Source of the DNA: Minisyncoccota bacterium
GTDB lineage: Bacteria > Patescibacteriota > Minisyncoccia > Phycocordibacterales > CALRHW01
Direction: 5' to 3'
Length of the DNA stretch: 64,000 nucleotides
NCBI GenBank assembly: GCA_046350795.1
Contig: JAXLZT010000002.1
Coordinates: forward strand, 24,293 to 88,292
Part shown: piece after piece, positions 10,011 through 55,600 of the stretch
Layout: each line of letters starts with the position of its first letter
Numbering within the stretch: the first letter of the stretch is position 1
Notes under the pieces: model-generated
What the model was told of the DNA's origin: nothing
Databases searched by the model: none
Seen by the model: only the letters and a program-made list of their open reading frames with translations
Position numbers and translations under genes: made by a program

Positions 10011-10014
10011 TCAT

Positions 10015-10536: not shown

Positions 10537-10547
10537 CAGCATATTGT

Positions 10548-11159: not shown

Positions 11160-11161
11160 GT

Positions 11162-13117: not shown

Positions 13118-13144
13118 TCGGTAAAGATTGCTTTTTTTGCCGCA

Positions 13145-22453: not shown

Positions 22454-22478
22454 TCTCGTCTCTTCATGTGATAATATA

Positions 22479-22934: not shown

Positions 22935-22938
22935 TCTT

Positions 22939-23520: not shown

Positions 23521-23537
23521 CAAAACGACCGTGTATT

Positions 23538-24500: not shown

Positions 24501-24503
24501 ATA

Positions 24504-33265: not shown

Positions 33266-34966
33266 TCAGCCTATATCTTTTATTTTCTTTGCTAAGTATC
33301 TTTCTCCGCCCTCCATTTCTTCTGAAAGTTCTACGAATATTTTGTATTCTTCCTCTGTAAGCTCTCTCTTTGAGCTAGCTTTTTCAAGCATCTTTAGGTA
33401 TCGTCTCAAGTCTTTTTTGAGTAATTCAAATACTGCATGCATCTCTTGTTCTGTTTCTGTCTTATCTTTTTCCATCTCACGCTTTAGGTTGTGTGATTTT
33501 CTGATGATGAATAGTATTAATAGGATAAATAGAAGTATCAATACCAGAACAGTTATACCTATTGAGATTATTTGTATTGTTTTTGTACCAAACCACACCG
33601 CCTTTGTTTCCCTTACATTTACAAAGACTTTCTCTGAAGGATCGCTTTTTACTTTGTCTGTTCTTATTGTTTCTGCCCACACTGATACATTACCGATGTT
33701 TCTTATTGGTTCTGTATTAAATGAGAATATGCCATCAGGATTGGATTTTACTGTGTAGCTTTTAGCTTCAAGTCCTTCTTCTTTTATCCATACGACTATA
33801 TCTGACTCTCCGTAGAATGATTTTCCTTGGACTTCAAATTTTGAGTCTACCTGTATGAATTCTGGGTAAGTAGTGATTTTTGGTATCTTTGTGACAGGTG
33901 AGTTTATAGAAACTGTTGATTCTGTGTTGTTGCCAGCCTTATCAAACACTTTTACAGTAATATCTTTTCTTCCTGAAGGTAGAGGAGATAAGATTATTTC
34001 TTGTTCAGAATCAGACTCAACATTTGCTTCTGCTATTTTTTCTTCTCCTAAATATACTTCGTATTTAGATACTCCAGATAGTGCATCTTTTGCAGATACT
34101 GAAAGAGAAATTGTGTCTTCTTCTGTAGTTTTTGAGTATATATTTAGATCTGTTGGTTTTGTAAGATCTATTTGTATTTTTCTACTTGCTATAGGTCCAA
34201 ATCCAGATGAGTTTCTAAATCTAGCGTTTATGAATAGTTTTCCTTCCGGTAGATTTTCAAGGGTCTTTGTCTTTATTGCTGGCTGATAATTTACGTACGG
34301 TACTGTGTCAGAGAATTTACTCAATACGAGCTGAACAGCTAATACTCCAGAAGGTATATCCCAAGTAAAGTTTCCAGATGTTGTGTTGTACCAAGAATCA
34401 GCGTTAGGCATATCTGGAGAGGTTATATTTGGAGCTTTCGGTAGTGAAACAGGGGTTGTTGGTGTCACAGGCACAGTCACGGGTGTTCCAGAGACTGTTA
34501 TAGAGCCACCTCTGGCTTGTGAAAATACATTTGTTCCTTTTCCATCATTTGCTCTAATTGCAGATGAGCCAAAAGATAAGCTAGCAACACCTGCTTTTTT
34601 TGCTCTAAAGTTTACTTTTAATATATTTCCAGTCTGTCCAGAATATCCAGGATTGGGTACGCCACCATTGAAAGATACTATTCCGCTTGTGTTGGAAAAT
34701 GTTGGTTGTTCAATCCACATTGTCATGACTGAGCCAGCTGTGGTGACAGAATCAACACTCAATGTATCAGCAGGGAAGAATAGACTTCCTTCTGCGTTGT
34801 TTACTTTTACTTCGTCAGTCGATATGTATACGGTTGCTGTAAAAGTACCATTTATTGATACTTGGGATTTGTCCAATACCAAGTACATATCTGCTGCACT
34901 CGCTATTGATGGAAGGATAAAAGATAGGCAGAGTATTATTGCATAGATAAATATTTTCCTTTTCAT
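33266..34966 (-). CDS. Membrane-anchored surface protein with N-terminal cohesin-like domain and Ig/FN3-like modules
   Basis: Signal peptide. Cohesin-like segment LVLDKSQVSINGTFTATVYISTDEVKVNNAEGSLFFPADTLSVDSV...GNILKVNFRAKKAGVASLSF. C-terminal TM helix followed by a charged coiled tail. Confidence 0.5.
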   Translation of the reverse strand: MKRKIFIYAIILCLSFILPSIASAADMYLVLDKSQVSINGTFTATVYISTDEVKVNNAEGSLFFPADTLSVDSVTTAGSVMTMWIEQPTFSNTSGIVSFNGGVPNPGYSGQTGNILKVNFRAKKAGVASLSFGSSAIRANDGKGTNVFSQARGGSITVSGTPVTVPVTPTTPVSLPKAPNITSPDMPNADSWYNTTSGNFTWDIPSGVLAVQLVLSKFSDTVPYVNYQPAIKTKTLENLPEGKLFINARFRNSSGFGPIASRKIQIDLTKPTDLNIYSKTTEEDTISLSVSAKDALSGVSKYEVYLGEEKIAEANVESDSEQEIILSPLPSGRKDITVKVFDKAGNNTESTVSINSPVTKIPKITTYPEFIQVDSKFEVQGKSFYGESDIVVWIKEEGLEAKSYTVKSNPDGIFSFNTEPIRNIGNVSVWAETIRTDKVKSDPSEKVFVNVRETKAVWFGTKTIQIISIGITVLVLILLFILLILFIIRKSHNLKREMEKDKTETEQEMHAVFELLKKDLRRYLKMLEKASSKRELTEEEYKIFVELSEEMEGGERYLAKKIKDIG

Positions 34967-35839
34967 TTATTTATTTTTGTAGAATTTCCAAAATCCAAAA
35001 AATACTATCAATATAAATATGATTATACTAATAATTTTCATCCAAGGCTTGCTGTTTTGTGGATTAAAGGTTGATGTCCTTTCGTTACCCGCATTATCTA
35101 TTGCTTTTACTGTAATAAGACTAGAGAGACTCTGGTCTTGTAAAACATAAGGACTTCCTGATCTCACTGGTGCGCGATTTCCTTCTGTTATTTCGTATCT
35201 GTTTATTCCAGAGTCGTTATCTGTAGTAAAGAAACTGATAAAATATTTACCATCAAATAGAGAATGGGTGCTTCCAAAATCTATATTAAATTTATTTGGT
35301 GGAGTTTTATCGTTATTTGTGAGCGACACGAGTTCATTTTCGTTTGTTCCTGATATTTGCACTGGTATTTGAATAGAGTCACCTGAAACTGCGGTTTTTG
35401 TACCTTTACCGTCATTTAGAAATGCTGTTGCATTTACTAGGTTTATTTTTATTGGCTCTGTGTTTGTTGGTTTTACTGCTATTGTGAAAAGTCTCAGAGA
35501 TTTTCCATATACTCCAGCTGTGGTACCACCAACGAAAGATATTTTGTCGCTATTAATATCTAGTGATGGTTTTCTTGGCCATAAGTCAAAGATTGATCCA
35601 CCTGTATTTATAGAAACCACATCTTTTGGTGTACTAAACTTTATTTCACCTTCTATTGCGTTTATTTCTTCGGCCGTATCAAGCATTACTTTTATGATAC
35701 TTGTGTTGCCAACGCTGATTGGTTTTTCTGGTAGGTCAACAAATATTTTTGCTGCATTTGCATAAGAGGGTATTGCAAATACGAAAAGTAATGTTATGGC
35801 TATGCGCGCGGTGATCTTTTGTAAAAGTTTTTTATTCAT
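34967..35839 (-). CDS. Membrane-anchored cohesin-like domain protein (start set at MNKKLLQKIT)
   Basis: Signal peptide. IKVMLDTAEEINAIEGEIKFSTPKDVVSINTGGSIFDLW...LRLFTIAVKPT parallels the cohesin-like segment of the neighbouring gene. C-terminal TM anchor. Confidence 0.5.
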   Translation of the reverse strand: MNKKLLQKITARIAITLLFVFAIPSYANAAKIFVDLPEKPISVGNTSIIKVMLDTAEEINAIEGEIKFSTPKDVVSINTGGSIFDLWPRKPSLDINSDKISFVGGTTAGVYGKSLRLFTIAVKPTNTEPIKINLVNATAFLNDGKGTKTAVSGDSIQIPVQISGTNENELVSLTNNDKTPPNKFNIDFGSTHSLFDGKYFISFFTTDNDSGINRYEITEGNRAPVRSGSPYVLQDQSLSSLITVKAIDNAGNERTSTFNPQNSKPWMKIISIIIFILIVFFGFWKFYKNK

Positions 35840-35849
35840 GATTTTCAAT

Positions 35850-38450
35850 TTATATAACACTTCCGGAAGTGCCCCATTGTGAAAGAAGTATTGAGAAATC
35901 AACAGAGTTGACTGTGCTGTCTTGATTTATATCTACACATTCGTTTTGAAATGGCGCTATATTTTTCCAAAAAGCAAGCAAGATAGAGAAATCTACAGAG
36001 TTTACTATGTTGTCGGAGTTGAAATCTGCACCTTTACATGAGCCGGTATTACCTGATGATGAACTTCCGCCACCACTACTTCCGCCGCCACCACCGCCAC
36101 CGCCGGAGCTACCACCCCCACTGACTGTGAATGTTCTAGATGATCCTGAAGAATCTGTACCGAAGTACACTATGAGTTTGAAATAATAATCTCCTGCAGA
36201 ATCAACTGTCGCTGTAAGGTTTGTATTCCAATCTTCTCCTGGGTTTATAAATTTAGCACCTGTTGCGTGATATTCATCGTCTCCACCGCCACAAGAGTTT
36301 GATGCGCTAGATACAACGCACCATTCGTATTGGTATTCATATCCAGCTAGACCTTCGTTTGTAATTGTTACGTTTGCGCTGATATCAGAGACTGAGTTTG
36401 CTGTAACACTATTTATAATTACCTGAGCAGGGGAGCCAGCTACTAGCCAGTAATCGTTGTTTGTAAGTGTTTTACCACTTTCAACTTGTGTACTTATAAC
36501 ACTTTCCCATACGCCCTGAGTCGCACCAGAGGCTACAGAATATGTGTATTCATATATACCGGTTCCTACAGATGACATCGCAACATTTGATACTGTTACA
36601 TTTCTGAGAGGATCGTAAAGTGTGATTGTTGGTGTAGCAAATGGGGAAGTAGGAACACTGTTGTTATTTCTGATTTCAATTCTAGCTCTGTATGTTTCGC
36701 CAGCTTGAACTTCGTTGAAGTCTGACATTACTGTTGTCCAGCCAGAGCTTCCGCCGATTGCGCTTATCGCTGAAGCAAGAGATGTACTAGCAGTTAAAAC
36801 GCTACTATTTGTATTACTATTCACAGCACTTGTACCAGCTGTGATCGCTGAAGCCAAACTACTTGTCGCTGTCTGTACGTCAGACAATGTTGCGAGACTT
36901 CCGCTTGTGAGTGCTCCGCTTGTTAGAGTACGTACAGAGTTTGACCAGACATCAGACGCAAGTGTGCCGAAAGAGGTGAGTGTTCTACCACTATATGACC
37001 AAATCACTGCAGGAATTGTTGCAAACAAGCTTGATGAAGCTGTTGCGATCTCTGCGTCAGTGTTTGCGTTTACATCAGTCACTATATTCGCTGTCGCACT
37101 ATTGGTATTTGCGTTGATTACAGCAGCCAAACTAGATGTAGCTGTTGTCACCACTGAGCTTGTGTTGCTGTTTACAGCACTTGTACCAGCTGTGATCGCT
37201 GAAGCCAAACTACTTGTCGCTGTCTGTACGTCAGAAAGTGTTGCGAGAGAGCCAGATGTGAGCGCTCCACTTGTTAGAGTACGTACAGAATTTGACCAGA
37301 CACTAGATGTCACATCAGCTACGAGCGTACCAAAAGATGTAAGTGTTCTTCCGCTATATGACCAGATTGTTGCGGGAAGTGTAGCGAATAGAGATGATGA
37401 GGCCGTTGCAATCTCAGCATCAGTGTTTGCATTTACGTCAGTTACTATGTTTGCAGTAGCGCTGTTTGTGTTCGCATTAATAACCGCGGCTAGACTAGAT
37501 GAAGCTGTTGCAACCCTTGAGTCAGTGTTTGAGTTTACGACAGCAGCCAAACTACTTGTCGCTGTCTGTACGTCAGACAATGTTGCGAGACTTCCGCTTG
37601 TGAGTGCTCCGCTTGTTAGAGTACGTACAGAGTTTGACCAGACATCAGACGCAAGTGTGCCGAAAGAGGTGAGTGTTCTACCACTATATGACCAAATCAC
37701 TGCAGGAATTGTTGCAAACAAGCTTGATGAAGCTGTTGCGATCTCTGCGTCAGTGTTTGCGTTTACATCAGTCACCATATTCGCTGTCGCACTATTGGTA
37801 TTTGCGTTGATTACAGCAGCCAAACTAGATGTAGCTGTTGTCACCACTGAGCTTGTGTTGCTGTTTACAGCACTTGTACCAGCTGTGATCGCTGAAGCCA
37901 AACTACTTGTCGCTGTCTGTACGTCAGAAAGTGTTGCGAGAGAGCCAGATGTGAGCGCTCCACTTGTTAGAGTACGTACAGAATTTGACCAGACATCAGA
38001 AACTAAGCTACCAAAGGAGCTAAGTGTACGAGTAGTACTGTTCCAAACAGCATTCGCTATGGTACTTGTAGCAGCTATTGTCGCTCCGACTGTAAAGGTT
38101 TTATTTACTTTCACTAAATCACCGTTAGAAATGTTCCCACACGTCATATAAGTAGGCCAATTGCCCTCACTTTCTCCAGCACCAATAGAAAAATTGTAGT
38201 ATGTCCAACCATTTGCATTGGCTGTCATTGCACCAGCGTTTAATTTTACGCTTCCAGAAGGATCGTAGATAGTCAGAGTACAGCCAGCAGTAGTTGTTGC
38301 TACAAAATCATCATCATAAACAAACTCACCTATAGTAATAGTGTCACCAAGAGAAGCTCTTTGATAGTCCGCTTTTGCTGTATTTGAAAAAGACAAAAAC
38401 AACCCAAAAAATAAAATGCAAAATGCAAAAAAGGGTAGTGTTTTTTTCAT
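35850..38450 (-). CDS. Large secreted dockerin-containing repeat protein (start set at MKKTLPFFAF)
   Basis: Signal peptide. Four or more ~110-aa tandem repeats (WSNSVRTLTSGALTSGSLATLSDVQTATSSLA...NANTDAEIATASSSLFAT). A Gly/Ser linker. A C-terminal type-I dockerin pair (DFNSDNIVNSVDFSILLAFW, DINQDSTVNSVDFSILLSQW) with canonical Ca-loop positions 1,3,5,9,12. Confidence 0.7.
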   Translation of the reverse strand: MKKTLPFFAFCILFFGLFLSFSNTAKADYQRASLGDTITIGEFVYDDDFVATTTAGCTLTIYDPSGSVKLNAGAMTANANGWTYYNFSIGAGESEGNWPTYMTCGNISNGDLVKVNKTFTVGATIAATSTIANAVWNSTTRTLSSFGSLVSDVWSNSVRTLTSGALTSGSLATLSDVQTATSSLASAITAGTSAVNSNTSSVVTTATSSLAAVINANTNSATANMVTDVNANTDAEIATASSSLFATIPAVIWSYSGRTLTSFGTLASDVWSNSVRTLTSGALTSGSLATLSDVQTATSSLAAVVNSNTDSRVATASSSLAAVINANTNSATANIVTDVNANTDAEIATASSSLFATLPATIWSYSGRTLTSFGTLVADVTSSVWSNSVRTLTSGALTSGSLATLSDVQTATSSLASAITAGTSAVNSNTSSVVTTATSSLAAVINANTNSATANIVTDVNANTDAEIATASSSLFATIPAVIWSYSGRTLTSFGTLASDVWSNSVRTLTSGALTSGSLATLSDVQTATSSLASAITAGTSAVNSNTNSSVLTASTSLASAISAIGGSSGWTTVMSDFNEVQAGETYRARIEIRNNNSVPTSPFATPTITLYDPLRNVTVSNVAMSSVGTGIYEYTYSVASGATQGVWESVISTQVESGKTLTNNDYWLVAGSPAQVIINSVTANSVSDISANVTITNEGLAGYEYQYEWCVVSSASNSCGGGDDEYHATGAKFINPGEDWNTNLTATVDSAGDYYFKLIVYFGTDSSGSSRTFTVSGGGSSGGGGGGGGSSGGGSSSSGNTGSCKGADFNSDNIVNSVDFSILLAFWKNIAPFQNECVDINQDSTVNSVDFSILLSQWGTSGSVI
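36830..38000. repeat. Near-identical tandem DNA repeats (about 690 bp x2, each containing about 330-bp sub-repeats) inside the dockerin protein gene
   Basis: Blocks such as TCAGACAATGTTGCGAGACTTCCGCTTGTGAGTGCTCCGCTTGTTAGAGTACGTACAGAGTTTGACCAGACATCAGACGCAAGTGTGCC recur verbatim near 36880 and 37570. The shadow ORF 36715..38151 repeats identical peptide blocks. Confidence 0.7.
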
Positions 38451-38541
38451 GAGAATATTTGATTCAATAATATTTGATTCAAACTGATTAGTAAAGAAAT
38501 ATATCCACAGATTTTTCATTTATTTGTTCAAATAACATGTT

Positions 38542-39153
38542 ATGATATTTATAGTTTTTATGTTTTCCTTTGCACCAAATAAATTTTCTTTTCGTTTAAT
38601 TAGGAAAGGAAAAATAAAAAAAGAAAACGGTGAAAGTGTACCGGCTATTGGCGATTTCGATAAGCGCCTTTTCTTGAAAGTACTTGGTACAGCTGGAGTA
38701 GGTGTGTTTGCTGCAACAATGTTTCCCAAGAAAGCAGACGCTCTCATCATGGGAAGCACTCCTTCTTCTAGTGTTGTTGGGTTAAAAGATGATTCAAATA
38801 CTCGTATAAATCCAGCCACAGAAGAAAGTTTGCAGAGTTTGCTAAGCGGTCAGGGGGTAAACAAAATCACAACAAGCCTGAGCTCGTCTGGCACGGTGGT
38901 TACACCATCTTCTGGTAAAAAGTTGCGTATATATAGTACACGTTTTTCTTTGAGTGCTGATGCCACTTATGTTTCTTTCCGTTTTACATCTGGTGGCACA
39001 GATAAAGAAAAATATATTTCACCAAAAACTGGTGGTTTGTATGGTTCCAACAACCATCCCAACTATATAGAAGGTGGTGTGAATGAAGTTTTTTATTGCG
39101 CTATCAGTGGTACGACTACTGTGCAGATAAATGTGGATTATTTAGAAGTATAA
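38542..39153 (+). CDS. Secreted protein with Tat-like signal (KRLFLK + hydrophobic core + ADA), unknown function
   Basis: DKRLFLKVLGTAGVGVFAATMFPKKADALI resembles a twin-arginine (here K-R) signal peptide with an AxA cleavage site. The start codon is uncertain (no in-frame ATG nearby). Confidence 0.4.
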   Translation: MIFIVFMFSFAPNKFSFRLIRKGKIKKENGESVPAIGDFDKRLFLKVLGTAGVGVFAATMFPKKADALIMGSTPSSSVVGLKDDSNTRINPATEESLQSLLSGQGVNKITTSLSSSGTVVTPSSGKKLRIYSTRFSLSADATYVSFRFTSGGTDKEKYISPKTGGLYGSNNHPNYIEGGVNEVFYCAISGTTTVQINVDYLEV

Positions 39154-39174
39154 TAGTGTATAATTAAAAAAATT

Positions 39175-41835
39175 ATGGCGAAAAGAGCGATAGAACATTT
39201 ATTTACCGGCACGACAACACCGTATTCCGTCTATGATTCTACAAAAACAGTTTTGGGTGACTTGATTCAGCAATACACAGGCGCGACTTCAACAGACAAA
39301 TTTGCCGGACCAACAAAAATCGGTGTCGCTAGACCCAACGAAACCGGTACAGCTATACCAGCTATTTATCCACACGTTATTTCTTGGGCTGATAAGAGAG
39401 GTTATTATAGCACTGGTACTGTATCTGCTTCAGGCACCTCTGTAACAGGTAGTGGTACATCATGGATTTCAAACGGTGTACCAATCGGTGCGCAAATTGG
39501 TTTTGGCAGTACAGATCCAGGGTCAATCACAACCTGGTATACCATAAGCACTGTTCCTTCAAATACTTCTATTACAATATCCTCTTCTGCTGGCACAATA
39601 GCTGGCGGAACATCTTACGTTATAAATAAAGAATTACAAAAAGATTGGGTATTTTTGGCTGACAACGCCACAGCGGCTGCCACTCGTCGTATTACTTGTT
39701 TTGAATACAATAGATCGACATCACTTTTTTCTTGGAGAGGTTTTATTACCATTACATATCCTTCTGGAGGAGGTAATCAAACCATCAGAGGTATGCGTGT
39801 GATATATGACACATACACCACAGGAACAGTCGGTGTTTCTGGTGCTACGGTGACAGGTAGCGGTACTACTTGGTCTGCTGATCGTATTGCCATTGGTTCA
39901 AGAATTGGTTTTGGTAGTACAGATCCCACTCAAATATCTACTTGGTATTATATAAATGCCGTCGGTGGCGATACTTCTATTACTATTCAAACAAACGTTA
40001 CTGCCAGTGGTACTGGAGGTACTGCTGCAAACATTTCCATAGCTTCAAGCACTGCTTATGTTATAGAAGATTTAAAGGTGCTGACAGCCACCACTGCTGT
40101 GGTGGTTGCTGCTGGAGGTTTGGCGGTGGTAAATGGTCTCTCTTATGATGATTTTGCTGTTGGAGGTACTACTATCGCTGCCGCGACTACAGTAGACAAA
40201 ACAAAAGCTGTATATTGTTTGGTTGATTTGGACTCTCTATATTCTACTGGTACCGTAACAGTGCCTTCTTCTACTACAGTTACAGGAAGCGGTACTTCTT
40301 GGGCAGCTGCAACACACTTGGGTTGTATGATTGGTTTTGGATCTACAAATCCAGCTTCTATTACTACTTGGTATACTATTACGGCGGTTGGTTCTACTAC
40401 ATCACTCACCATTTCTTCTGCAGCAACAGTTTCTGGAGGTACTGCGTATGTGATAGTGGGTGGAAACGGTATTTCTGGTGGTTTGGCTATTGATGATAGA
40501 GTGAGTTGGACTGAACAACATGCATATATTATTGAGGTCCAGGCTGGTACGACACCTCAGGTATATAAATACAATTTTCGTGCAAATTTAAACACATTAG
40601 GAAACGTGGCAGCAGGTAAGTCGGCTTGTGGCTGGATGCTTACTACTGGTACACAGACTGTTACAGGTACAGTTTCTCAGACAAACAACGGAAGAATAGG
40701 AACTTTGTCCCACGGTCCAGGATCTGGTGTTAAATGTTTATATTTTGCTGCCACAACTCGTATTCATAGGGCACCCCTTTCTGCTATTGTTCAGGGAAGC
40801 TCAACGTGGGTATCTGATTCTATGACCGAAATACCTACTGGAGGTACTGGTACATATACCGCTTCGAGTCTTATGACATCTGTAGAAATTGCTGATCAAA
40901 TAGACAGACTTATTATCACATCTACAGGTGCTGGAGGTACTACAGCTCACCATCGTGCTTATATTACAAAGTATGATTCTTCTGGTTCTTATGTTTTTGA
41001 TCACATATTTTTGACAGATAGTGCCCAGCAAGATCAATCTACAGCAGATTCTGATTCTACACCTCATCCAAATCCTCAGGGTGCTGCTTTGTCTGTATGG
41101 TCACAGGGAGGATTGGTATATATGGCACGTACTGGTACAGCTTCTACTACAAACATAATGTATTCAGTACCACTTGGTGCTGATTGGCAGTATGCTGACG
41201 GGACGGTAAAACAAAGACTTGTTACACCTGAGCTTTCTACCACAAACGCTACAAAACTTTCTCGTGTGTATATCAACGATGTCGGATATTTGGGATCAGG
41301 TGGTCTCACTATGCCTACAGAGCCGATTCGTATTTATTATAGAACTACTGGAATAGATGATGATTCTGGAACTTGGACACTAGTAGATCAGACGGGGGAT
41401 TTGGCAGAAGCAACACCAGCATCTACTGTACAATTTGCTATAGAGTTTAGATTAATTGGTGCCACATGTATACCAAATAGAGTTTTCAATTTGTGTTGTA
41501 CATACGAGGACAATACAACAGACAGTCATTATCAGCCGTCTGTTGCGCAATCTTCGATTACAAGCAAGCGTTTTGCATGGAGATTTTCAACAGCGTTTGG
41601 TGGTACTGTGCCGACTCTCAGAATACGACTATATAATGCAGAGACAGATGGTTTGATTTTGGATGATACAACCACAGCATCTGCTTCTGGAACATTTGAG
41701 AAGTCTACTGATGATGGTCAAAACTGGGGTTCATACAATACAACAGACAAGGGAAATGAAACTACTTACATTCGTTATACACCGACATCTTTGGCTGATG
41801 ATATAAAAGTAAGAGCCCTTTTAACTCAAAACTAA
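39175..41835 (+). CDS. 886-aa protein with three ~70-aa Trp-containing internal repeats; unknown function (surface/fibre-like)
   Basis: Repeats: GTSVTGSGTSWISNGVPIGAQIGFGSTDPGSITTWYTIS; GATVTGSGTTWSADRIAIGSRIGFGSTDPTQISTWYYIN; TTVTGSGTSWAAATHLGCMIGFGSTNPASITTWYTIT. Ser/Thr/Gly-rich with no recognisable catalytic motif. Confidence 0.45.
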   Translation: MAKRAIEHLFTGTTTPYSVYDSTKTVLGDLIQQYTGATSTDKFAGPTKIGVARPNETGTAIPAIYPHVISWADKRGYYSTGTVSASGTSVTGSGTSWISNGVPIGAQIGFGSTDPGSITTWYTISTVPSNTSITISSSAGTIAGGTSYVINKELQKDWVFLADNATAAATRRITCFEYNRSTSLFSWRGFITITYPSGGGNQTIRGMRVIYDTYTTGTVGVSGATVTGSGTTWSADRIAIGSRIGFGSTDPTQISTWYYINAVGGDTSITIQTNVTASGTGGTAANISIASSTAYVIEDLKVLTATTAVVVAAGGLAVVNGLSYDDFAVGGTTIAAATTVDKTKAVYCLVDLDSLYSTGTVTVPSSTTVTGSGTSWAAATHLGCMIGFGSTNPASITTWYTITAVGSTTSLTISSAATVSGGTAYVIVGGNGISGGLAIDDRVSWTEQHAYIIEVQAGTTPQVYKYNFRANLNTLGNVAAGKSACGWMLTTGTQTVTGTVSQTNNGRIGTLSHGPGSGVKCLYFAATTRIHRAPLSAIVQGSSTWVSDSMTEIPTGGTGTYTASSLMTSVEIADQIDRLIITSTGAGGTTAHHRAYITKYDSSGSYVFDHIFLTDSAQQDQSTADSDSTPHPNPQGAALSVWSQGGLVYMARTGTASTTNIMYSVPLGADWQYADGTVKQRLVTPELSTTNATKLSRVYINDVGYLGSGGLTMPTEPIRIYYRTTGIDDDSGTWTLVDQTGDLAEATPASTVQFAIEFRLIGATCIPNRVFNLCCTYEDNTTDSHYQPSVAQSSITSKRFAWRFSTAFGGTVPTLRIRLYNAETDGLILDDTTTASASGTFEKSTDDGQNWGSYNTTDKGNETTYIRYTPTSLADDIKVRALLTQN

Positions 41836-41836
41836 T

Positions 41837-42445
41837 ATGATTCACATAGAAAATAATTCAGAGATTATAGAGAATAAAAATTTAAGAGTCGCTTCTCCTA
41901 CAGGTGATTATGAAGACACTGCTCTTGTAGATTTCTTTGATATTAGTAAGCCGGGTATGGTAGCTGGTTCTTTTCAGGCTCAATATATAAAATATGGCGG
42001 TCTCGTTTATAAATTTAACGAGCCATCAGAGCTCGGTGAAGCTATTTTAAAAGTAGACCCAGAATCTACACATTCAGCGGCATCTTATGTGCGCATGAGC
42101 AAGGAGCTTTTGGCTCAGATGAATGGTGGCACCCTAGATTCTTCTTCTCTTGATCAAATTAGGGTTGAAGAAAAAAATATTGTAGAAGAATCAGAGCCTG
42201 TAATACAAGAGCCAGCAGTACAAGATCCTGTTGTAGAAAAACCAAAAAAGCCAGAAAGGACTCGCAAACCAACACTTTCTTCTATGGACGGCGCTTTGTC
42301 TACTACCACTCCAGTTACCACCACATCATCTGATAACATAATAGAAGATGTCCAGTCTGTGGTAGAAGATGTTACCGTAAAAGCAGAACAAATCTCTAGA
42401 ACAGCAGAAAAAATATCAGATGTTGTAGAACAAATCGTTAGATAA
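41837..42445 (+). CDS. Acidic hypothetical protein with Pro/Glu/Thr-rich low-complexity tail
   Basis: 202 aa. The start overlaps the preceding stop (translational coupling). No motifs recognised. Confidence 0.4.
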   Translation: MIHIENNSEIIENKNLRVASPTGDYEDTALVDFFDISKPGMVAGSFQAQYIKYGGLVYKFNEPSELGEAILKVDPESTHSAASYVRMSKELLAQMNGGTLDSSSLDQIRVEEKNIVEESEPVIQEPAVQDPVVEKPKKPERTRKPTLSSMDGALSTTTPVTTTSSDNIIEDVQSVVEDVTVKAEQISRTAEKISDVVEQIVR

Positions 42446-42449
42446 AAGC

Positions 42450-42629
42450 TATGGCTCTTACAGATGTAAATTTTAATGAGGGTGAGGTGCAAGATTTTTT
42501 ACTGGAAATACCAACCGCTGTTTACTCTGGATCTTTAGAGGATGTCTTGGTGGAAGAGTCAGGTAGTCAAACATTGATGTCTGAGATACCAGAAGCCTCT
42601 GGCGGAAATATCTTCATAATGTCAGAATA
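42450..42629 (+). CDS. Small acidic hypothetical protein (59 aa)
   Basis: An ATG 5 nt after the previous stop and an uninterrupted frame (MALTDVNFNEGEVQDFLLEIPTAVYSGSLEDVLVEESGSQTLMSEIPEASGGNIFIMSE). Confidence 0.3.
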
Positions 42630-42634
42630 GTGGG

Positions 42635-43366
42635 GTGGATGGATTAAAAGAAAATTTTAAAAAGTTTCTACCTTATTTAGAGGATTTACGTAGGAAGCTC
42701 TATTTTTCTACAATATTCTTTCTTGCTGTTTTTATAATAGGTTTTTTCTCTTCTGCTTTTATTATTAAAAGTGTAGTAGATATCTTTAGAATGAGTGGTG
42801 TGGTTATTGCCACTACTTCTCCATTTCAATTTGCAGATGTTGCAATGGATATCGGCTTTTTTTCAGCCATTATTTCAACTCTACCAATAGTGGTTTTTCA
42901 GATTTTCTCTTTTGCTTCTCCGGCACTTACCAATAGAGAGAAAAAATGGTTTTTTCTAGCTGTACCTATTAGTATTATATTTTTTCTGTCAGGATTTTCT
43001 TATGGTTTCTTGATTCTTTATTATTCTTTTGGTCTTTTAGCAAAAATAAATAGCGGTCTTGGTGTGCAAAATATATGGGACGTAAGCTCTTTTTTGTCAC
43101 AGATTTTTATTACGTCATCACTTCTTGGTGTGGTATTTCAATTTCCAATTATACTAACGGCTCTAATAAAAATCGGTATTATTAGTCGAGACTTTTTAAG
43201 TCAAAAGAGGCGCTTTGCTTACTTCTTGGTGTTCGTTCTGGTGTCTTTACTTCCACCTACTGATGGGCTATCATTATTAGCAATGGGATTGCCATTGGTT
43301 TTTTTGTACGAATTTACAATTTTAATTAATATTAAAAAACAACAACATGTTTGGATTAGGAACTAG
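42635..43366 (+). CDS. tatC: Twin-arginine translocase subunit TatC
   Basis: 243 aa and 6 TM helices. The N-terminus LEDLRRKLYFSTIFFLAVFIIGFF is typical of TatC. Confidence 0.7.
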   Translation: MDGLKENFKKFLPYLEDLRRKLYFSTIFFLAVFIIGFFSSAFIIKSVVDIFRMSGVVIATTSPFQFADVAMDIGFFSAIISTLPIVVFQIFSFASPALTNREKKWFFLAVPISIIFFLSGFSYGFLILYYSFGLLAKINSGLGVQNIWDVSSFLSQIFITSSLLGVVFQFPIILTALIKIGIISRDFLSQKRRFAYFLVFVLVSLLPPTDGLSLLAMGLPLVFLYEFTILINIKKQQHVWIRN

Positions 43367-43505
43367 AGAGCTCATAATACTTGCGATAATCTTCATTCTA
43401 CTTTTTGGTGCAAAGAAGATTCCAGAACTTTCAAAGAGTATAGTAGAGGCTATCAGACACATGAGAGGTGCTTTCAAGGATATTGATGAGCCGAAGAAGA
43501 AGTAG
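43347..43505 (+). CDS. tatA: Twin-arginine translocase subunit TatA/E (52 aa; below the ORF-track length cutoff)
   Basis: MFGLGTRELIILAIIFILLFGAKKIPELSKSIVEAIRHMRGAF matches the TatA consensus (MFG.G..ELIII..I.LLFGAKKLPELG...G..IR.F). Overlaps the tatC 3' end. Confidence 0.65.
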   Translation: MFGLGTRELIILAIIFILLFGAKKIPELSKSIVEAIRHMRGAFKDIDEPKKK

Positions 43506-48822: not shown

Positions 48823-49515
48823 TTATGCTAAGATTTTGTATCCTCTTCCAGGTACACTAACTATTAGATTTTTATTCATATCACGTATCTTTTTTCTAAT
48901 GTTCATTATGTGTGTTTCAATGGTATTTGAAAAAGGATTTATCTCTAGATTCCAGACGTGTTCCAATATCATTCCACGAGAAAGAACGTGCCCCTTATTT
49001 CGCATCAAGTATTCCAAAAGCGCAAACTCTTTTTTTGTAAGATAAATTTCCTTATCTTTGTAAGTTACTACTTGTTTTGTTGTCTCTAATTTTATGTTTT
49101 CTACTTGCAAAACATGACCATGTATATGTCGCGCTCTTTTCATAATGACTCTTATGCGTGCCAGTAGCTCATCAAAGGAAAATGGTTTAAGTATATAGTC
49201 ATCGGCTCCGGCATTAAAACAATCTATTTTGTCATCAAGCTCTCTGCTTTCTGAAAGAACAATGATTGGTGTATTTCTACCTATGGCTCTGATTTCTTTA
49301 CATATTTCTATTGCGTTTTTTTCTGGAAGGAAAAATTCGGATATGATCAAATCATAGTCATTGGTGCGAGCAATAAATGAAGCGTTTTTGCCATCTTCAG
49401 AGGTGTCGACAGCAAAGCAGGTGGAAAGTAAACTTATTTCCAAAAATTCTCTCATTCTTTTATCATCTTCTATTATCAATACTCTCATATAGGCCTTGTA
49501 CCAAAAATTGGCCAA
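48823..49515 (-). CDS. OmpR-family response regulator (REC + winged-helix); likely start MRVLIIEDD at 49488
   Basis: REC-domain Asp pocket (LIISEF...), K-box, and a C-terminal winged-helix (GHVLSRGMILEHVWN). Confidence 0.8.
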   Translation of the reverse strand: MANFWYKAYMRVLIIEDDKRMREFLEISLLSTCFAVDTSEDGKNASFIARTNDYDLIISEFFLPEKNAIEICKEIRAIGRNTPIIVLSESRELDDKIDCFNAGADDYILKPFSFDELLARIRVIMKRARHIHGHVLQVENIKLETTKQVVTYKDKEIYLTKKEFALLEYLMRNKGHVLSRGMILEHVWNLEINPFSNTIETHIMNIRKKIRDMNKNLIVSVPGRGYKILA

Positions 49516-49617: not shown

Positions 49618-52600
49618 GTGGTATTAATAATTTATGAAAAAACCACAAATTTTATGAAAAATCTCTTATTTATTGGGGCAAGAGGGCAAAAACACAGTCT
49701 TTTATCAAGGTTTTTTATTAAATCGACAGCAGGGCTGTTGATTTTTTTATTTGCTTTTCCGGTGGGGGTAGTTTGGGGAGAAGATCACAGTATCGATAAA
49801 AACCACAACAGATCAGCTGAAAAAACAGATACAATAAAACCATCAGACCCAGAAAAACACGATGTTGGTGTTGTACCAACTATATCTGAAGTAGCTCCAT
49901 CTCATAGATCAAAAAAGGATTCTAGAGATGAATCTGATAAGGAGGTGGTTCCACAGTTATTGCTTGATGAAGATGCAAATAATATAGTAGAAAATCCTAG
50001 TTCAATAAAAAGTTTATTGCCTGACGTTGATACTTTTTCTGGATCTCTTGTTTATAAATATCCAATAGTTTTGCCAGCTGGTCGCAACGGTCTTACCCCA
50101 AGTCTTGATCTTACATACAATAGTGGTTTGTCATTAAATAATAGTATTTCTGGATACAACTGGTCTCTTTCTATTCCTTTTATAGAACGTATAAACAGAA
50201 AAGGTGCTGACAAGCTTTACTCAAGGAATGATTTTGTATCGTCTCTTTCAGGTGAGCTTGTAGCAGAAAATGGTACCACTAAATATACAGCAAAAGTTGA
50301 TGAAGGTTCTTTTCTAGATTATACATTCACAAATGATACTTGGACTGCTGTAGATAAACAGGGAACAAAATATACTTTCGGCTCTACTACTCAGTCACGT
50401 TTAAACAATGCTTCTAACGCATCAGAAACTTATCGTTGGATGGTGGAAGAGATTCGTGATAAAAATGACAATTTCATTAGATTTGAGTATGAAAAAGACA
50501 GTAATCAAATCTATCCTTCAAATATTTTTTATACAGGATATGGAAGTACGGACGGTATTTTTGAAGTAAATTTTAATTATGAAAATAGAGAAGATGAAAC
50601 CAATAGTTTTGCATCAAGATTTGAGATGGTTACTTCAAGGCGTCTTGAGAACATAGAAATAAATATAAACGGTGTTTTATCAAAGAAATATTCTTTAGCA
50701 TACATCGCTGGTCACAACACCGTCAGATCTTTATTAAAATCAATCACTGTGTCGGCTGGAACCACCACATTGCCTGCAACGGAATTTGAATATCAGACTA
50801 TACCAAAAAAATTAGAATTTAAACCTGATGTTTTTCAGTCACCATCATTTTACAGGCCATCTACATCAGATTATGCTTTTATTGAATTAAAAGAGAGTCC
50901 TGAATCTACAAATAGACTTGTTGATGTCAACGGCGATGGTCTTTTGGATTTTATACGTACTTCTAATAGCGAAAACAGTGATGGTATTGTTCATGACATA
51001 AATAATGATTTGCCTCGCGTTTTCCTAAACACAGGTCATAGTTGGGAATTTAATCCAGATAAATACCAGTTACCTTCTTATTACCGACCTAGTACAAATG
51101 ATTATAAGTATATGGTTCTAAATGATGTCAATAAACTCATTGATGTTAACGGGGACAATTTACCAGATTTTATTCATACTTCAGATGTAGCTGATGCTGA
51201 TGGTGTGATCACTAACAACAATGATGGTTTCCCGAGAGTCTATTTAAATACTGGTAATGGTTGGGAATTTAATCCAGATAAATATCAATTACCTTCTTAT
51301 TACCGACCTAGTACAAATGATTATTTTTTCTTTCAGACAAAAGAAGAGGAGCACGATGTTACGCAGATAATAGATGTCAACGGTGATGGGCTACCAGATT
51401 TTGTGCGTACATCCGACGATGAGGATGCTGATGGTGTTGTTCTTAACAATAACAACTCTGCTCCTCGTGTATATCTAAATACTGGTAACGGTTGGGAATT
51501 TAATCCAAATAAATATCAACTTCCTGTTTATTACAGACCTAGTACAAATGATTATTATTTTATGGCACTTAAATCTGTCCCAGGATCTACAAACAGACTT
51601 ATTGATGTCAATGGTGATGGGTTAGTAGATTTTTTGAGAACAAATGACACTGAGGATGCTGATGGAGTTGTTTTAAATAACAACGGTGATGCACCACGTG
51701 TTTATCTAAATACTGGCAACGGCTGGGAATTTAATCCAGATCACTATCAGCTTCCTGTGTATTACAGACCGCCTACAAATGATTATCATTTTATGGCACT
51801 TAAGGAGTTTACACAGCTTGCTGATGTAAATGGCGACGGTTTGCCAGATTTTGTCCGTACAGACGATGGTGAGCATGCGACGGGTGTTATAACAAATCTA
51901 AATGGTGATGGTCCACGTGTTTATCTAAACACAGGAAATGGTTGGAAGTTTGATCCCGATTTGTATCAGTGGCCGGCATTTTACAAGCCAGCTACAAACA
52001 ATTATGAGTGGAGAGCTTTGAAGACTAGTAATCAGCTCATAGATATAAACGGTGATAATCTATTGGATTTTGTGCGCACATCTGCTGGTGAGGATGCTGA
52101 TGGACTAATACTTAATAATAATGGTGATGGATCTCGTGTATATATAAATACAGGAAAAGGTTGGGAATTTAACCCTGATTTATATCAATTACCTTCGTAT
52201 TATAGACCGTCTACATCAGACTATTATTTTATGCAACTTTCATATTACTCTAAATTTGCTGATATAAACAACGATGGATTGCAAGATTTTATTAAGACTA
52301 CAAGCGAATTTGATTCTGATGGTCTTATTCTGAATAATCTAAACGATGGTGCAAGAGTATACCAGAATGTTGGGGAAACCGCTGATTATTTAGCAGCTGT
52401 TATTTTTCCAGAGGGTGGAGAGGCACATTTCGATTATCAACTTGAAATAATAAACGGCAGAAATCCAAGTAGTCCATATTATTCTCAAAATGTTTCTGTG
52501 CTTAAAGATATTGTCATAGATGATGGTCTGGGGAATCTAGCAACAAGTACATATAAGTACAAAGATGGAGAGTATTTTTATCATAACGATCCATTTAAAC

Positions 52601-55600
52601 AATTTACAGGATTCAGTAAGGTAGAAAAAACAGACGCTCTAGGGAATTTAACAAAATCATATTTCCATCAAGGTAACGCTTCAGCTACAAGTACCGGTGA
52701 ATACGATGATCACATTTCAAAAATGGGAAAGATGTATCGCACAGAGCAGTACGATGCAAACGGCAATCTTTTTTCAAAGACCATAAATAAGTGGGATCAC
52801 TTTGATACTTTGACTGCTGCGGGTGCGACTTCTACTTTTGTAAAACTCGTAGATACTGTGGAGTTTGCATATGACGGAGATTCTGATCATAGAGAGAAAG
52901 CAGAAAGTTATGCGTATGATAATACCAATGGTAATTTGTCACAAAAAATATCTTGGGGTGAGGTAAATGGTAATAATGATGGCACTTTTTCAGATACTGG
53001 AAGCGACAAAACTACGACTAGTATGACATATGCCACAAGCTCAACTACCAGTGTTTTACCATCAAGCTTCTTACCGTCTCGTGAACTCGTTGTCGATCAA
53101 TATGGCGCTGTAGTACGTGATACAAAATCATATTATGACAATCTCTCTTTTGGATTAATAGATAAAGGTAATCTAACAAAGCAGGAAATGCTAAAAAGTG
53201 GTTCGTCATATATCGATGTAGAAAAGATCTACAATAGCTACGGTCTTGTGACACAGGAAAAAGATCCACGCGATAAAGCAACGAGTTACTCATACGATCC
53301 TTTCAACTTATATCCAGCAACTACTACAAATCCTATAGGACAAACGACGAATGCTTTGTATGATTATTCGTCAGGCAAGCCAAAGCAGATTACAGATGCA
53401 AATGGGTGGGTGTTTCAGATAATATACGACGGTCTAGGAAGAATAATAGAAGAAAAACAGCCAGATACAGTATCGCCCGCAACTCTTGTTACAAAATCCT
53501 CCTATGTTTATGAGGACGACACTTTCCCTACGAGTGTAATGAAAACGGATTATTTAAATGGCCTATCTACTTCTTCGTCTACCGTTGATTCGTATAAATA
53601 TTTTGATGGTTTGGGTCGCGTAATACAAGAGCGCCGACGTGCAGAAGATAGTAATACATATAGTGTAAAAGACACACAGTATGGTCTGACAGGACAAAAA
53701 TCTCGTGAGTCACTGCCATACTTTAGCACCGGATCTGCACGTACTAGTGCGACTGGTACAAATTCACTTTGGAACAATTTCACTTACGATGCACTTGGAA
53801 GGATAAAGACTATTGCAAACTCGGTTGGTACAATAACAAATACGTATGATGATTGGAAACTCACTGTTACCGACGCAAATGGTAAATCAAAAGATTTATA
53901 CAAAGACGCGCGGGGTAATCTGGTGCAAGTAGACGAACACAATTCTGGTGATACATATAGTACATACTATGAATGGAATCCACTTGGTAACCTGACAAAA
54001 ATAACAGATGCACTCGGTAATATTCGCAACTTCACATATGACAAATTGGGTCGTCGTTTGACAGCAGAAGATTTACACTATTCTGGCGATGGTAATTTTT
54101 CTACTTGGACCTATACATATGATGATGCTGGTAACACAACTTCTGTAGTTGATGGAAAAGGGCAAACCGTAAACCATACATATGATGATATCAACCGCGC
54201 ACTTACAGAAGACTTTACTGGTGAAAAGGGAACAGAGATTACATATGGATACGATATTTGTAGCAACGGAAAGGGAAAAATTTGTTTTGCTACTAGTACT
54301 GATGCTCTGGCTGGTAGGACGGTAGTATCATATACATATGACGCACTCGGTCGCACATCTAGTGAGGCAAAAAATATTGCTGGTACAACATACCAGACAA
54401 ATAATGAATATGATCGCTTGGGCAACCAGACACTTGTTACTACCCCAGACGGAGCGCAAATAAAATACGAATACAACTCTGGTGGAATGGTAGAAAAAAT
54501 AGCTCGTAAGGGAGCGGGAGCGGGTTCATTTGTAAATGTGGTTGAGGATTTTGACTACTCTCCAGAAGGAAAAATAGTATATCAAAACAATCACAATGAA
54601 ACTGCGACAACAAATACATATGATGCTAGTCACCTGTATCGTCTAACTGATAAATTTACCGATGGACCAGCATGGGGCATCACAAATGTCCTTCAGGATT
54701 TGCACTATACATATGACAATGTAGGCAATATCACACAGTTGTCTGATACTTCAGAAACAAACAACAGTAAAACTATAGTTTACACTTATGACGATCTTTC
54801 ACGGCTCACTATGGCTTCTAGTACTGCTGTGGGTGACGGTCCAGCATACAAAGAGACTTACACATATAACGCCATCGGCAACATTCTTACAAAAAGTGAC
54901 TTAGGTACATATCTATATTCCGGTGCCACATCTACTACTCTCTTTACCAATCCTCACGCTGTCACGTCTGTAAACGGTACAGCGTACACCTACGACCGCA
55001 ATGGCAATACCACACAGGCAGGTACGGCCACAAGTAGCTGGAACTATAGAAACCAAATGATAAGTATGAAAGTGGGAGCGACTACCACCACCTACGTCTA
55101 CGACCATACGGGTGATCGTGTAAAATACACTAACAAACTTTCTACTATCGTATATCCCAACAAGCTATACAACATAGAGATACCAGTTGGTACTTCTACT
55201 ATGGCTACTACCACCGCAAGTCATATTTTCCTAGGTGACACCATGATAGCTACAGTAGAAAAGGTGGGTACTACCACAGAAGCTATACACTACATACACA
55301 CAGATCATCTCTCGGGTGCCAACATATCTACAGACAAAGACGGCCTTGTCACTGAAATCACCGATTTCTACCCATATGGAGACCAGAGACTAAACAAGAG
55401 CTACAATGGTAACTTTAAAGAACAAAGGAAGTTTACAGGGCACGAGTATGATGAGGATACGGGGTTGAATTATATGGGGGCGAGGTATCAGAATGGGAAT
55501 ATCGGGAGGTTTATGAGTGAGGATCCGGCCTTTCTCAAATTTGACCCAAATACTTCAGAAGGAAAGATGATGTTAATGGATCCACAACATCAAAACTCCT

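Follow-up and report, generated by a model that had tools for sequence, protein, structure and literature searches.

What do four genes of no familiar family do between the gene of a dockerin-bearing surface protein and tatC-tatA? The initial annotation of this DNA, a window of 64,000 nt to which all positions refer, called them secreted or acidic and suggested that they are further parts, cargo or an assembly factor of the same surface structure as the cohesin-dockerin genes. The four products are named here S (203 aa), L (886 aa), A (202 aa) and m (59 aa).

A close-packed array of six genes

The four ORFs placed at 38542-42629 are all present there on the + strand, and they diverge from the dockerin gene (DOCK; - strand, 35850-38519), as described. 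S, L, A and m gave zero matches in Pfam, NCBIfam and PADLOC, in agreement with the view that they belong to no recognised family; PADLOC models run against all seven proteins of the locus returned 0 families. The spacing of the last three genes needs a small correction: A and m are separated by 5 nt, as annotated, but the supposed overlap of L and A is a 1-nt spacer (TAA-T-ATG). Proximity of the first gene to tatC and tatA was also pointed out and is real but understated, as the stop codon of m lies 4 nt before tatC. S-L-A-m-tatC-tatA form a single same-strand array with gaps of 21, 1, 5 and 4 nt and a final overlap of 20 nt (Table 1).

S probably starts at Met7 (38560, giving 197 aa), which matches homologues P0123-P0126. 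The start of DOCK, judged by its Sec-type signal, is probably Met24 (38450) rather than 38519, which would leave an intergenic region of ~110 bp. Calculated pI values are 9.5 for the S precursor, 5.4 for L, 4.5 for A and 4.1 for m. The flanks contain housekeeping genes (LeuRS-type synthetase, ABC ATPase, HI0933-like oxidoreductase, pseudouridine synthase, DEAD helicase and similar genes). Terminase, portal, capsid and integrase genes are absent from the window, and no tail or defence genes adjoin the block within it.

Table 1. Coordinates of the array, its subfeatures and the dockerin triad in the 64,000-nt window
Feature	Positions	Strand	Description
c566	33266..34966	-	566 aa; larger paralogue-like companion of c311; Sec signal, C-terminal TM anchor
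c311	34967..35902	-	311 aa; Sec signal, N-terminal beta domain whose likeness to cohesin is by eye only, C-terminal TM anchor; neighbour in 47/76 loci
DOCK	35850..38519	-	889 aa; Sec-signal surface protein; Ser/Thr/Ala-rich repeats, MG2, C-terminal dockerin (Pfam MG2, Dockerin_1)
S ORF	38542..39153	+	203 aa; leader-bearing precursor of small jelly-roll protein; likely true start 38560
S leader, residues 1-67	38542..38742	+	N-motif N-K-F-S-F-R-L (residues 13-19), D-K-R-L-F-L-K, h-region, P-K-K-A-D-A↓L
L	39175..41835	+	886 aa; signal-less, all-beta; predicted six-bladed beta-propeller, three inserted ~70-aa repeats, C-terminal beta-sandwich region(s)
L repeat 1, residues 75-152	39397..39630	+	phage-fibre-like; PHROG 1591 'tail fiber protein', 7.4e-15, 3 stretches; repeat alignment
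L repeat 2, residues 213-298	39811..40068	+	PHROG 1591 match, repeat alignment
L repeat 3, residues 351-432	40225..40470	+	PHROG 1591 match, repeat alignment; weak PDB sequence match 8eci 'decoration protein', E 0.024
A	41837..42445	+	202 aa; acidic; conserved ~100-aa N-domain; variable acidic, Pro/Thr-rich tail
m	42451..42630	+	59 aa; acidic; MALTDV...NIFIMSE; found in 66/76 genome loci
tatC	42635..43366	+	Pfam TatC, 4.7e-38; begins 4 nt past m stop
tatA	43347..43505	+	TIGR01411 tatAE, 1.3e-11, under curated cut-off; 20-nt overlap with tatC end

The leader of S

The description of the block as secreted holds for S only: no signal was found in L, A or m, and the N-terminus of L is conserved from residue 1. 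The Tat-type signal reported in S, with K-R in place of R-R, is supported by its relatives, 80 of 87 parsed homologues having K-R and 4 having R-R. The x-F-L-K and A-x-A positions are nearly invariant as well, and the K-R motif is not a chance resemblance. D40-K41-R42-L-F-L-K46 (nt 38659-38679) is followed by the h-region VLGTAGVGVFAATMF and by P-K-K-A-D-A67↓L68, in which A-D-A↓L is the predicted signal-peptidase site; the AF2 model of S places a helix over residues 38-60. The h-region, the basic c-region and A-x-A are kept in the homologue alignment, where D-x-x-K-R-x-F-L-K and P-K-K-A-(D/E)-A↓L, like the h-region between them, are near-invariant.

Against TIGR01409 the leader scores 12.4 bits (cut-off 16.7), the first R of the (S/T)-R-R-x-F-L-K consensus being replaced by K; natural K-R variants of Tat signals and tolerance of R-to-K changes are on record (PMC1182353). 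The strict pattern [RK]R.F[LIVM]K plus a hydrophobic run, searched in ~1.4 Mb of related loci, identified 60 S orthologues and 0 other proteins. The genome encodes both TatC and TatA, directly after the block. These observations suggest that S is exported via Tat.

In Bacillus subtilis, phoD-tatAd-tatCd encodes a dedicated minimal TatA/TatC translocase beside its substrate. The present locus shares with it a two-component TatAC, a monoderm-type cell, an array that includes a protein with a Tat-type leader, and conserved linkage of the two. It differs in that its apparent cargo is a phage-type jelly-roll protein instead of an enzyme whose cofactor is known, in that the leader has K-R, is unusually long (about 67 aa) and carries a second conserved motif, and in that the array also encodes two small proteins and a large partner that has no signal.

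Phage relatives of S, L, A and m

The predicted structure of S is a jelly roll whose nearest counterparts are viral turret and cement proteins. The model of L is a six-bladed beta-propeller into which three phage-fibre-like repeats of ~70 aa are inserted; no NHL repeat sequence signature was found in L. These inserts are the only parts of this L that match a PHROG family (1591), and phage copies of L match none. A tblastn search of 50,697 GenBank phage records gave zero matches for L, and BFVD matches for L were weak (TM <= 0.2).

Relatives of L are encoded by 133 IMG/VR stretches, and in IMG/VR contigs their neighbours include genes for tail sheath, tail tube, TerL, portal and major head. Fewer of the viral loci also have genes like those of S, A and m; these keep the order S-like, L, A-like, m-like, within structural modules of uncultivated tailed phages. 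The S-like phage proteins have no leader (for example, L111, with 126 aa and 47% identity to mature S). A has 80 homologues, and its first ~58 residues match phage proteins of 55-64 aa (or 235-242 aa) that are encoded beside L, with 33-34% identity and E values of 1e-5 to 1e-7; in 20 viral loci L is followed by an m-like gene (MALTDI...). TatC, TatA, DOCK, c311 and c566 were found in 0 of 80 viral loci. One bacterial locus, L046 from an Armatimonadota genome, has L and m in a region that looks like a prophage and also encodes HNH endonucleases, a transposase and a minor tail protein. A neighbour-joining tree leaves the donor direction between phages and cells unsettled.

By homology and gene order, S, L, A and m are related to a cassette of phage structural genes, a relationship missed by the initial annotation. 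They resemble phage tail-fibre or appendage cassettes in that L homologues, and in fewer cases those of S, A and m, occupy phage structural modules in the same order, in the PHROG match of the L repeats and in the fold of S. They differ from them in the absence of other phage genes here and in the Tat leader gained by S; moreover, the L family is missing from PHROGs and GenBank phage records, and its role in the virion is putative.

Linkage across genomes and proposed function

The linkage survey covered 76 species-level genome loci with L, almost all from Patescibacteria/Paceibacteria. The tat genes lie beside L in 66; of the remaining 10, eight are cut short by a contig end and two come from outside the Patescibacteria. 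S, L, A, m, TatC and TatA occur together in 53 loci and all nine genes in 41. Scattered orthologues would have spoken against the link to the dockerin genes that was proposed at the outset, but DOCK shares the locus with L in 63 of the 76 and its two membrane-anchored companions do so in 47 and 49. Gene order is permuted while linkage is kept: tatCA lies ahead of S (L001, L025, L030) or behind m, and the dockerin triad either precedes the block in divergent orientation, the arrangement of this window, or follows it on the same strand. With the triad co-located in most loci, a functional association of the block with the dockerin surface fibre is well supported on genomic grounds. However, tatC-tatA is the tighter, operon-level partner, which had been overlooked.

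DOCK scores 26.3 bits against Pfam Dockerin_1 (cut-off 22.9), and its orthologues range from 300 to 2300 aa. Pfam searches detected no cohesin or dockerin domain in S, L, A or m, Dockerin_1 being confined to the neighbouring 889-aa protein. Nor did sequence searches confirm the label 'cohesin' for the neighbours of 311 and 566 aa: neither matches Pfam Cohesin at E <= 0.01, and the 566-aa protein, the one of the two that was searched against PDB sequences, has no match there. The cohesin resemblance is one by eye only. The locus is like cellulosome-type cohesin-dockerin display in that a Dockerin_1 protein is co-inherited with two membrane-anchored possible receptors; it differs in that both modules are absent from S, L, A and m, Pfam Cohesin is not detected in the neighbours and carbohydrate-active enzymes are lacking.

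We consider it somewhat probable that S-L-A-m is a cellular version of a phage structural cassette, exported via TatAC and working at the surface with the dockerin fibre. S would serve as a jelly-roll adaptor and L as a fibre-like protein built on a beta-propeller, with A and m as small accessory proteins, all wired by Paceibacteria to a minimal TatA/TatC translocase. S would be synthesised with its long K-R Tat leader, and L, A and m without signals. L would fold in the cytoplasm, possibly aided by A and/or m, a kind of help often given by small genes that follow those of phage fibres, and would then join the S jelly roll. The leader would be recognised by TatC, the folded S-L complex (about 93 + 15 kDa) would cross the membrane by the 'hitchhiker' route, and signal peptidase would cleave at A-D-A↓L. 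Once freed, the complex would act on the cell surface together with the dockerin-bearing fibre, with which it is co-inherited, and the two membrane-anchored partners of that fibre, its likeliest role being that of a binding head (adhesin or receptor-recognition). Between species, however, L and S share 75-80% identity, an unusually high value that counts against an adhesin or a phage receptor-binding protein, as these usually diversify. The cassette probably marks an undescribed cell-surface apparatus.

Tat hitchhiking has precedents in PaoABC (PMC4273604) and in Tat heterodimers (PMC10924467). As in hydrogenase small/large subunits, DmsAB and PaoABC, the signal is on the small subunit only and the next gene downstream encodes a much larger partner that lacks one; S and L are adjacent in 63 of 76 loci and also in phage relatives, and the predicted size of S-L is one that known Tat cargo can have. 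In contrast to these systems, the putative S-L complex has no redox cofactors and appears to be of phage structural ancestry.

Export of S alone, which we regard as unlikely, would leave L, A and m in the cytoplasm, for example as an S-specific folding or quality-control platform or in an unrelated role, tied to S only by common descent from the phage cassette. The missing signals of L, A and m agree with this, dedicated cytoplasmic partners are frequent for Tat substrates, and the extra conserved N-motif of the S leader is a possible chaperone-binding site; however, an 886-aa propeller conserved at 75-82% is far bigger than known Tat chaperones. Furthermore, homologues of A and m go with L in phages whose S is leaderless, which argues that they serve L and not the signal. 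The synteny of S-like genes and L in phages implies partnership, and a variant locus likewise pairs a leader-bearing small protein with a signal-less repeat protein of 1183 aa, together with two tatA genes and a DOCK gene. That S-L is instead a Tat-exported enzyme requiring cytoplasmic folding or a cofactor, such as a two-part oxidase/lyase like peptidylglycine amidating monooxygenase with its PHM jelly roll and PAL propeller, is very improbable. Cofactors are common in Tat cargo and S has an invariant polar block (P-K-T-G-G-L-Y-G-x-N-N-H-P-N-Y), but the folds are generic, with dozens of unrelated propellers within one Z unit and sequence identity of 7-12%; PHM-type copper sites need more than the single His and single Cys of mature S, and the same proteins occur in phage structural modules.

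The nearest relatives being genes of phage virion modules, an exported S-L might also be a phage-defence device, in which a domesticated receptor-binding module occupies or masks the cell's own phage receptor and brings about superinfection exclusion. The long, length-variable surface fibre linked to it is a plausible receptor. The lack of PADLOC matches and of defence or prophage neighbours in the window makes this role rather improbable, as does a stable chromosomal locus under strong purifying selection over many species, which is not how a variable defence island behaves. Phage homology and synteny, and the Armatimonadota region mentioned above, would fit a decaying prophage remnant, functionless in the cell and beside tatCA by accident. 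This has next to no likelihood and is effectively refuted by the survey of 76 loci: the ORFs are intact and 75-82% identical over dozens of species, S has gained a Tat leader that is itself conserved, and linkage to tatCA and the dockerin triad survives rearrangements, in a window with housekeeping flanks and the phage hallmark genes missing.

Tailocins, extracellular contractile injection systems and gene transfer agents are domesticated phage-derived machines. The cassette resembles them as a set of phage structural genes that purifying selection maintains as a trait of the cell, with no replication or packaging genes. It differs in being a fibre-like module only, with no sheath, tube, baseplate or capsid, and in that it would be released through Tat instead of by lysis or a dedicated secretion system, for which we know of no precedent. 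Going further than the export model, one may tentatively picture a domesticated phage appendage (jelly-roll adaptor, propeller head and two helpers) re-routed through TatAC by a grafted K-R leader-plus-neck and mounted on a dockerin-anchored fibre, as a partner-cell recognition organelle of the ultra-small, probably symbiotic Paceibacteria; we hold this to be possible but doubtful. If true, it would represent a new class of phage-derived surface machine and the chief reason why the reduced genomes of Paceibacteria keep Tat.

The S leader plus 'neck' is fused to different C-termini in Patescibacteria paralogues and appears to be a reusable export module. Since such other leader-bearing paralogues exist, the translocase is probably not strictly single-substrate.

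Gene anatomy and conserved neighbourhood

S, L, A and m are transcribed divergently from the dockerin gene, and their open reading frames coincide exactly with those of the initial annotation. That annotation had put the first gene 3.5 kb from tatC/tatA; because the spacers are short (21 nt between S and L, 1 nt between L and A as TAA-T-ATG, 5 nt between A and m) and tatC starts 4 nt after the m stop codon, the block is no island at that distance but supplies the first four members of an array of six genes that ends in tatC-tatA. Of the claim that the last three genes overlap or lie 5 nt apart, the A/m interval stands and the L/A overlap does not. Homologues suggest that the real start of S is Met7 (38560). 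In keeping with the initial annotation, scans of Pfam, NCBIfam and PADLOC gave nothing usable for the four proteins, and a signal is present in S only. A promoter and terminator scan was uninformative, with promoter counts near the shuffle expectation.

Coordinates of the features in the window and at related loci
Feature	Position	Strand	Remarks
N6/N4 DNA methylase and ResIII helicase-type subunit	1705-5747	+	
NirK-like multicopper oxidase	5803-7038	-	Cu-oxidase_3 and Cu-oxidase_2
GC-rich island	~6000-13500		GC 0.47-0.52, 0.32-0.45 elsewhere
Class II ribonucleotide reductase	7734-10010		
Squalene-hopene-cyclase C-domain protein	11162-13117		
Cell-wall-related run	18227-25818	+	
Dockerin gene	35850-38519	-	Pfam MG2 and Dockerin_1, above curated cut-offs
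S	38542-39153	+	203 aa
Second leader motif	38578-38601		S residues 13-20; also in paralogues P0350, P0353, P0360, P0365 and P0379, which have other C-termini
L	39175-41835	+	886 aa
A	41837-42445	+	202 aa
m	42451-42630	+	59 aa
tatC	42635-43366		Pfam TatC, 4.7e-38
tatA	43347-43505		20-nt overlap with tatC end
Two-component response regulator	48823-49515	-	
SpvB/RHS protein	49618-56316	+	2232 aa
Dockerin gene of L001	L001:11276-18193		2305 aa
Armatimonadota locus	L046:4859-15530		MAG, 1.36-Mb contig
Triple-L locus	L064:10001-17917		
Variant locus	L163:8001-16873		

The 311-aa and 566-aa companions of the dockerin protein have Sec signals and C-terminal transmembrane anchors; a cohesin identity was confirmed neither by Pfam nor, with the 566-aa protein as query, by PDB sequence search. 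PDB sequence searches with L, S, A and the 566-aa protein gave marginal matches only (8eci decoration protein, E 0.024; EscJ, E 0.044).

The closest relatives, with identities of up to 98-100%, are found in MAGs of Paceibacterota and other Patescibacteria. A scan with one genome per GTDB species yielded 76 loci, whose six-frame ORFs were then all searched with profiles. S was found at 63/76, A at 64/76 and m at 66/76 of these loci, TatC at 64/76, TatA at 65/76 and any tat gene at 66/76; the dockerin protein was found at 63/76, its 311-aa type companion at 47/76 and the 566-aa type at 49/76. S, L, A, m, TatC and TatA occur together at 53 of the 76 loci and all nine genes at 41. The ten loci without a tat gene comprise eight on truncated contigs and two outside Patescibacteria, one in Armatimonadota (L046) and one in Dependentiae (L077). 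Orthologues thus keep their linkage to the dockerin genes instead of being scattered, in agreement with the initial annotation, and tatCA is the tighter partner of the block.

Gene order is permuted between genomes. In L001, L025 and L030, tatCA lies ahead of S. The dockerin protein and its two companions, together the dockerin triad, are upstream and divergent in the window and in L004; in L006 and L010 they share the strand of the block and lie downstream of it. TatA or the triad is present twice in some genomes, and some have L as three tandem paralogues. The genes flanking the locus also vary from genome to genome. A linkage that outlasts such rearrangement is strong evidence of a functional unit. 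The tandem L paralogues (~880, 810 and 945 aa) lie between S and A in L064-L067, L070, L072, L074 and L079-L081, an arrangement that suggests a heteromeric assembly.

The dockerin protein ranges from ~300 to 2300 aa across species. The differences arise from expanded Ser/Thr/Ala-rich units with a recurring V-W-x-x-x-x-R-T-L-T-(S/G) motif, and the protein is predicted to be a length-variable fibre. No PHROG family matched the repeat at E <= 0.001 (marginally phrog_35225, E 0.0033, with the window protein), and PHROG scans found no phage relation for the dockerin protein or its two companions.

A conserved and reusable leader

The signal of S consists of D40-K-R-L-F-L-K46, the h-region VLGTAGVGVFAATMF and P-K-K-A-D-A67/L68. 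Among 120 listed homologues, 87 could be parsed with a simple pattern: K-R is present in 80, R-R in 4 and, as scored, K-K in 3, the last being K-K-R sequences that hence retain K-R too. The x-F-L-K stretch, h-region, Pro-62 and A-x-A site show little or no variation. The Tat-type K-R signal noticed in the single sequence is thus a conserved leader. It scores 12.4 bits against TIGR01409, below the cut-off of 16.7, as expected of a K-R variant. A natural K-R Tat signal occurs in Salmonella TtrB, and R-to-K substitutions are tolerated in SufI and TorA (PMC1182353).

The leader has another conserved motif ~25 residues upstream of K-R, (N/S)-K-(F/Y)-S-F-(K/R)-(L/F)-(I/V). No Tat-signal feature known to us accounts for it; it could be a chaperone-binding or sorting element.

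When all ORFs of 80 aa or more from 83 related loci and the window were scanned with a loose Tat pattern, 60 S orthologues and 10 other ORFs matched; the strict [RK]R.F[LIVM]K motif is absent from all 10. Copper oxidases are classic Tat cargo, and the window encodes one with two domains, a NirK-like multicopper oxidase. At its N-terminus lie hydrophobic, TM-like segments and the sequence 'QKRTHFM', which makes no convincing Tat motif, and the protein was set aside as a possible second Tat substrate.

A profile search with the S alignment over 1.84 billion representatives (E <= 1e-3) found 366 proteins of two classes. One has the S jelly roll without the leader, in phage-like proteins of 115-621 aa. 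The other comprises Patescibacteria proteins that share the leader and neck (SKYSFRF...KRxFLK...AEA/L.MGSTPSSSVVGVKD.SN.RINPATE) and have a different C-terminus; some carry L-type repeats. At the variant locus L163, a leader-bearing 290-aa S' is followed by a signal-less protein of 1183 aa full of L-type ~70-aa repeats. Also at this locus are genes for a 388-aa protein, two TatA proteins and a dockerin/MG2 protein, and upstream lies a PilM-like gene; TatC did not turn up within 17 kb (an N-gap lies near 13.4 kb). The design therefore recurs with different parts, namely a small leader-bearing protein, a large signal-less partner, tat and a dockerin fibre, which favours co-export. S is probably not the only protein to use Tat.

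Relatives of the cassette in tailed phages

An IMG/VR scan found 133 stretches encoding L relatives (33-53% identity over the full length), and 80 viral loci were kept for analysis. These 80 loci lack TatC, TatA, the dockerin protein and its companions. They encode m-like (20/80), A-like (12/80) and S-like (4/80) proteins, in every case in the cellular order S-L-A-m. Identity to the phage proteins is 47-55% over 110-128 aa for mature S (E 1e-32 to 1e-37), ~42% over 600-750 aa for L (E 1e-143 to 1e-178), 33-34% over 54-58 aa for the A N-domain (E ~1e-5 to 1e-7) and 33-46% over 41-52 aa for m (E ~1e-6). The leader is absent from the phage S-like proteins, which are a bare jelly roll (126 aa in L111) or bear it as the C-terminus of longer proteins, some with coiled-coil-looking N-terminal regions.

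By their gene content, the L-bearing viral contigs are identifiable as tailed phages. Genes for tail sheath, tail tube, TerL and portal surround L on a 519-kb contig (L099), a major head protein gene lies immediately upstream of the S-like gene and L in L105, and an AAA ATPase, TerL and portal lie downstream in L093, L094 and L160. At 38 of the 80 loci, the gene directly upstream of L encodes a 'virion structural protein' of variable length (133-2169 aa). This commonest upstream gene was considered as a diverged S, which hmmsearch and hhalign ruled out; it belongs to the phrog_10330/35197 family. An upstream family of variable length, unrelated to S, fits L as a distal module hung on interchangeable adaptors.

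The L family is not in PHROGs, and tblastn found no match to L in 50,697 GenBank phage records; because L is absent from both, its putative virion role is read from gene position alone. On that reading, L would be a conserved virion-module component in many uncultivated tailed phages, very large ones included, from a large unannotated family without Pfam, PHROGs or GenBank phage entries. Three clear ~70-aa repeats (residues 75-152, 213-298 and 351-432) are inserted in the L chain, with the consensus Y-(S/T)-T-G-T-V...V-T-G-S-G-T-x-W...I-G-F-G-S-T-(D/N)-P...T-W-Y...Y-V-I. They are the sole part that matches a library family (PHROG 1591, 'tail fiber protein', 7.4e-15), and shorter homologues (~710 and ~800 aa) probably have fewer of them. 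Foldseek matches of the L model to BFVD had significant E-values but TM <= 0.2, and were therefore set aside as evidence of a specific viral fold.

Cellular and viral sequences interleave in a neighbour-joining tree of 169 L proteins, where the window's L belongs to a monophyletic clade of 47 sequences whose sisters are viral; the tree gives no direction of transfer, its internal branches being too short. The Armatimonadota locus L046 has L and m without S, A, tat or dockerin genes, together with a transposase, HNH endonucleases, a minor-head-protein-like fragment and a 'minor tail protein', and is probably a prophage with the phage version of the cassette. An IMG/VR contig of 5148 bp (L088) has three tandem L genes whose nearest relatives are the cellular triple-L loci; it is probably a piece of a Patescibacteria genome wrongly classed as viral.

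Proposed export of a phage-related complex and competing readings

The observed gene anatomy, conservation, linkage, folds and phage homology are best explained by a phage-related S-L complex exported by TatAC. From established Tat biology, TatC would recognise the S leader, the folded cargo would be transported and cleavage would follow at A-x-A; L would hitchhike with S, as signal-less partners do in Tat export (PMC4273604, PMC10924467). Such hitchhiker complexes, and TatAC encoded beside its substrate, make the export logic one of a known kind. By analogy with phages, S may serve L as its adaptor, and A and m may help assembly or be small subunits. Linkage suggests that the exported proteins might cooperate with the dockerin fibre and its anchors. 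A binding function, as adhesin or in recognition, is speculation; that S and L vary so little in sequence points to a conserved ligand or partner, not to an arms-race target.

Export of S alone would agree with a signal restricted to S, and is unlikely given that L163 repeats the pairing of a small leader-bearing with a large signal-less protein. Phage-like surface proteins could also serve a receptor-masking defence, a rather improbable role for which PADLOC gave no match. A likeness to the PAL/PHM fold would allow a PAM-like enzyme exported by Tat; we regard the likeness as coincidence and give this reading very little weight. A dead prophage remnant, which the phage homology might bring to mind, is rejected on conservation and genomic context and is effectively excluded.

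The cells of Patescibacteria (CPR) are very small, for the most part uncultured, and presumed to live attached to other cells; outside the Saccharibacteria, almost nothing is known of the molecules at their surface. The locus is a concrete, widely conserved nine-gene candidate for a surface apparatus, and accounts for what Tat may serve in these reduced genomes. Domestication of phage structural genes has precedents too. What is new is the combination: a cassette for a phage appendage bears a K-R Tat leader, shares a nine-gene locus with tatAC and a dockerin-anchored fibre, is spread through Paceibacteria and is built of families that Pfam, NCBIfam, PHROGs and GenBank phages lack. No account of this locus was found in the searchable literature. 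If true, this would be to our knowledge the first phage structural module to be exported via the Tat pathway. On a bolder and less probable reading, the locus would encode a surface organelle of a new class, derived from phages, delivered by Tat and used in partner recognition. Leader function, the S-L complex, co-export and dockerin-fibre binding are testable by standard heterologous assays and structure prediction.

Elsewhere in the window, the GC-rich island, which contains the multicopper oxidase, the ribonucleotide reductase and the squalene-hopene-cyclase C-domain protein, may be horizontally acquired. The methylase and its ResIII neighbour resemble a type III restriction-modification pair. 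The cell-wall-related run encodes a 1408-aa Big_7 and peptidoglycan-binding protein, two M14 carboxypeptidases and an NlpC/P60-CHAP hydrolase. The 2232-aa protein combines SpvB, FG-GAP and RHS repeats in a polymorphic-toxin-like architecture, and its gene adjoins that of the response regulator.
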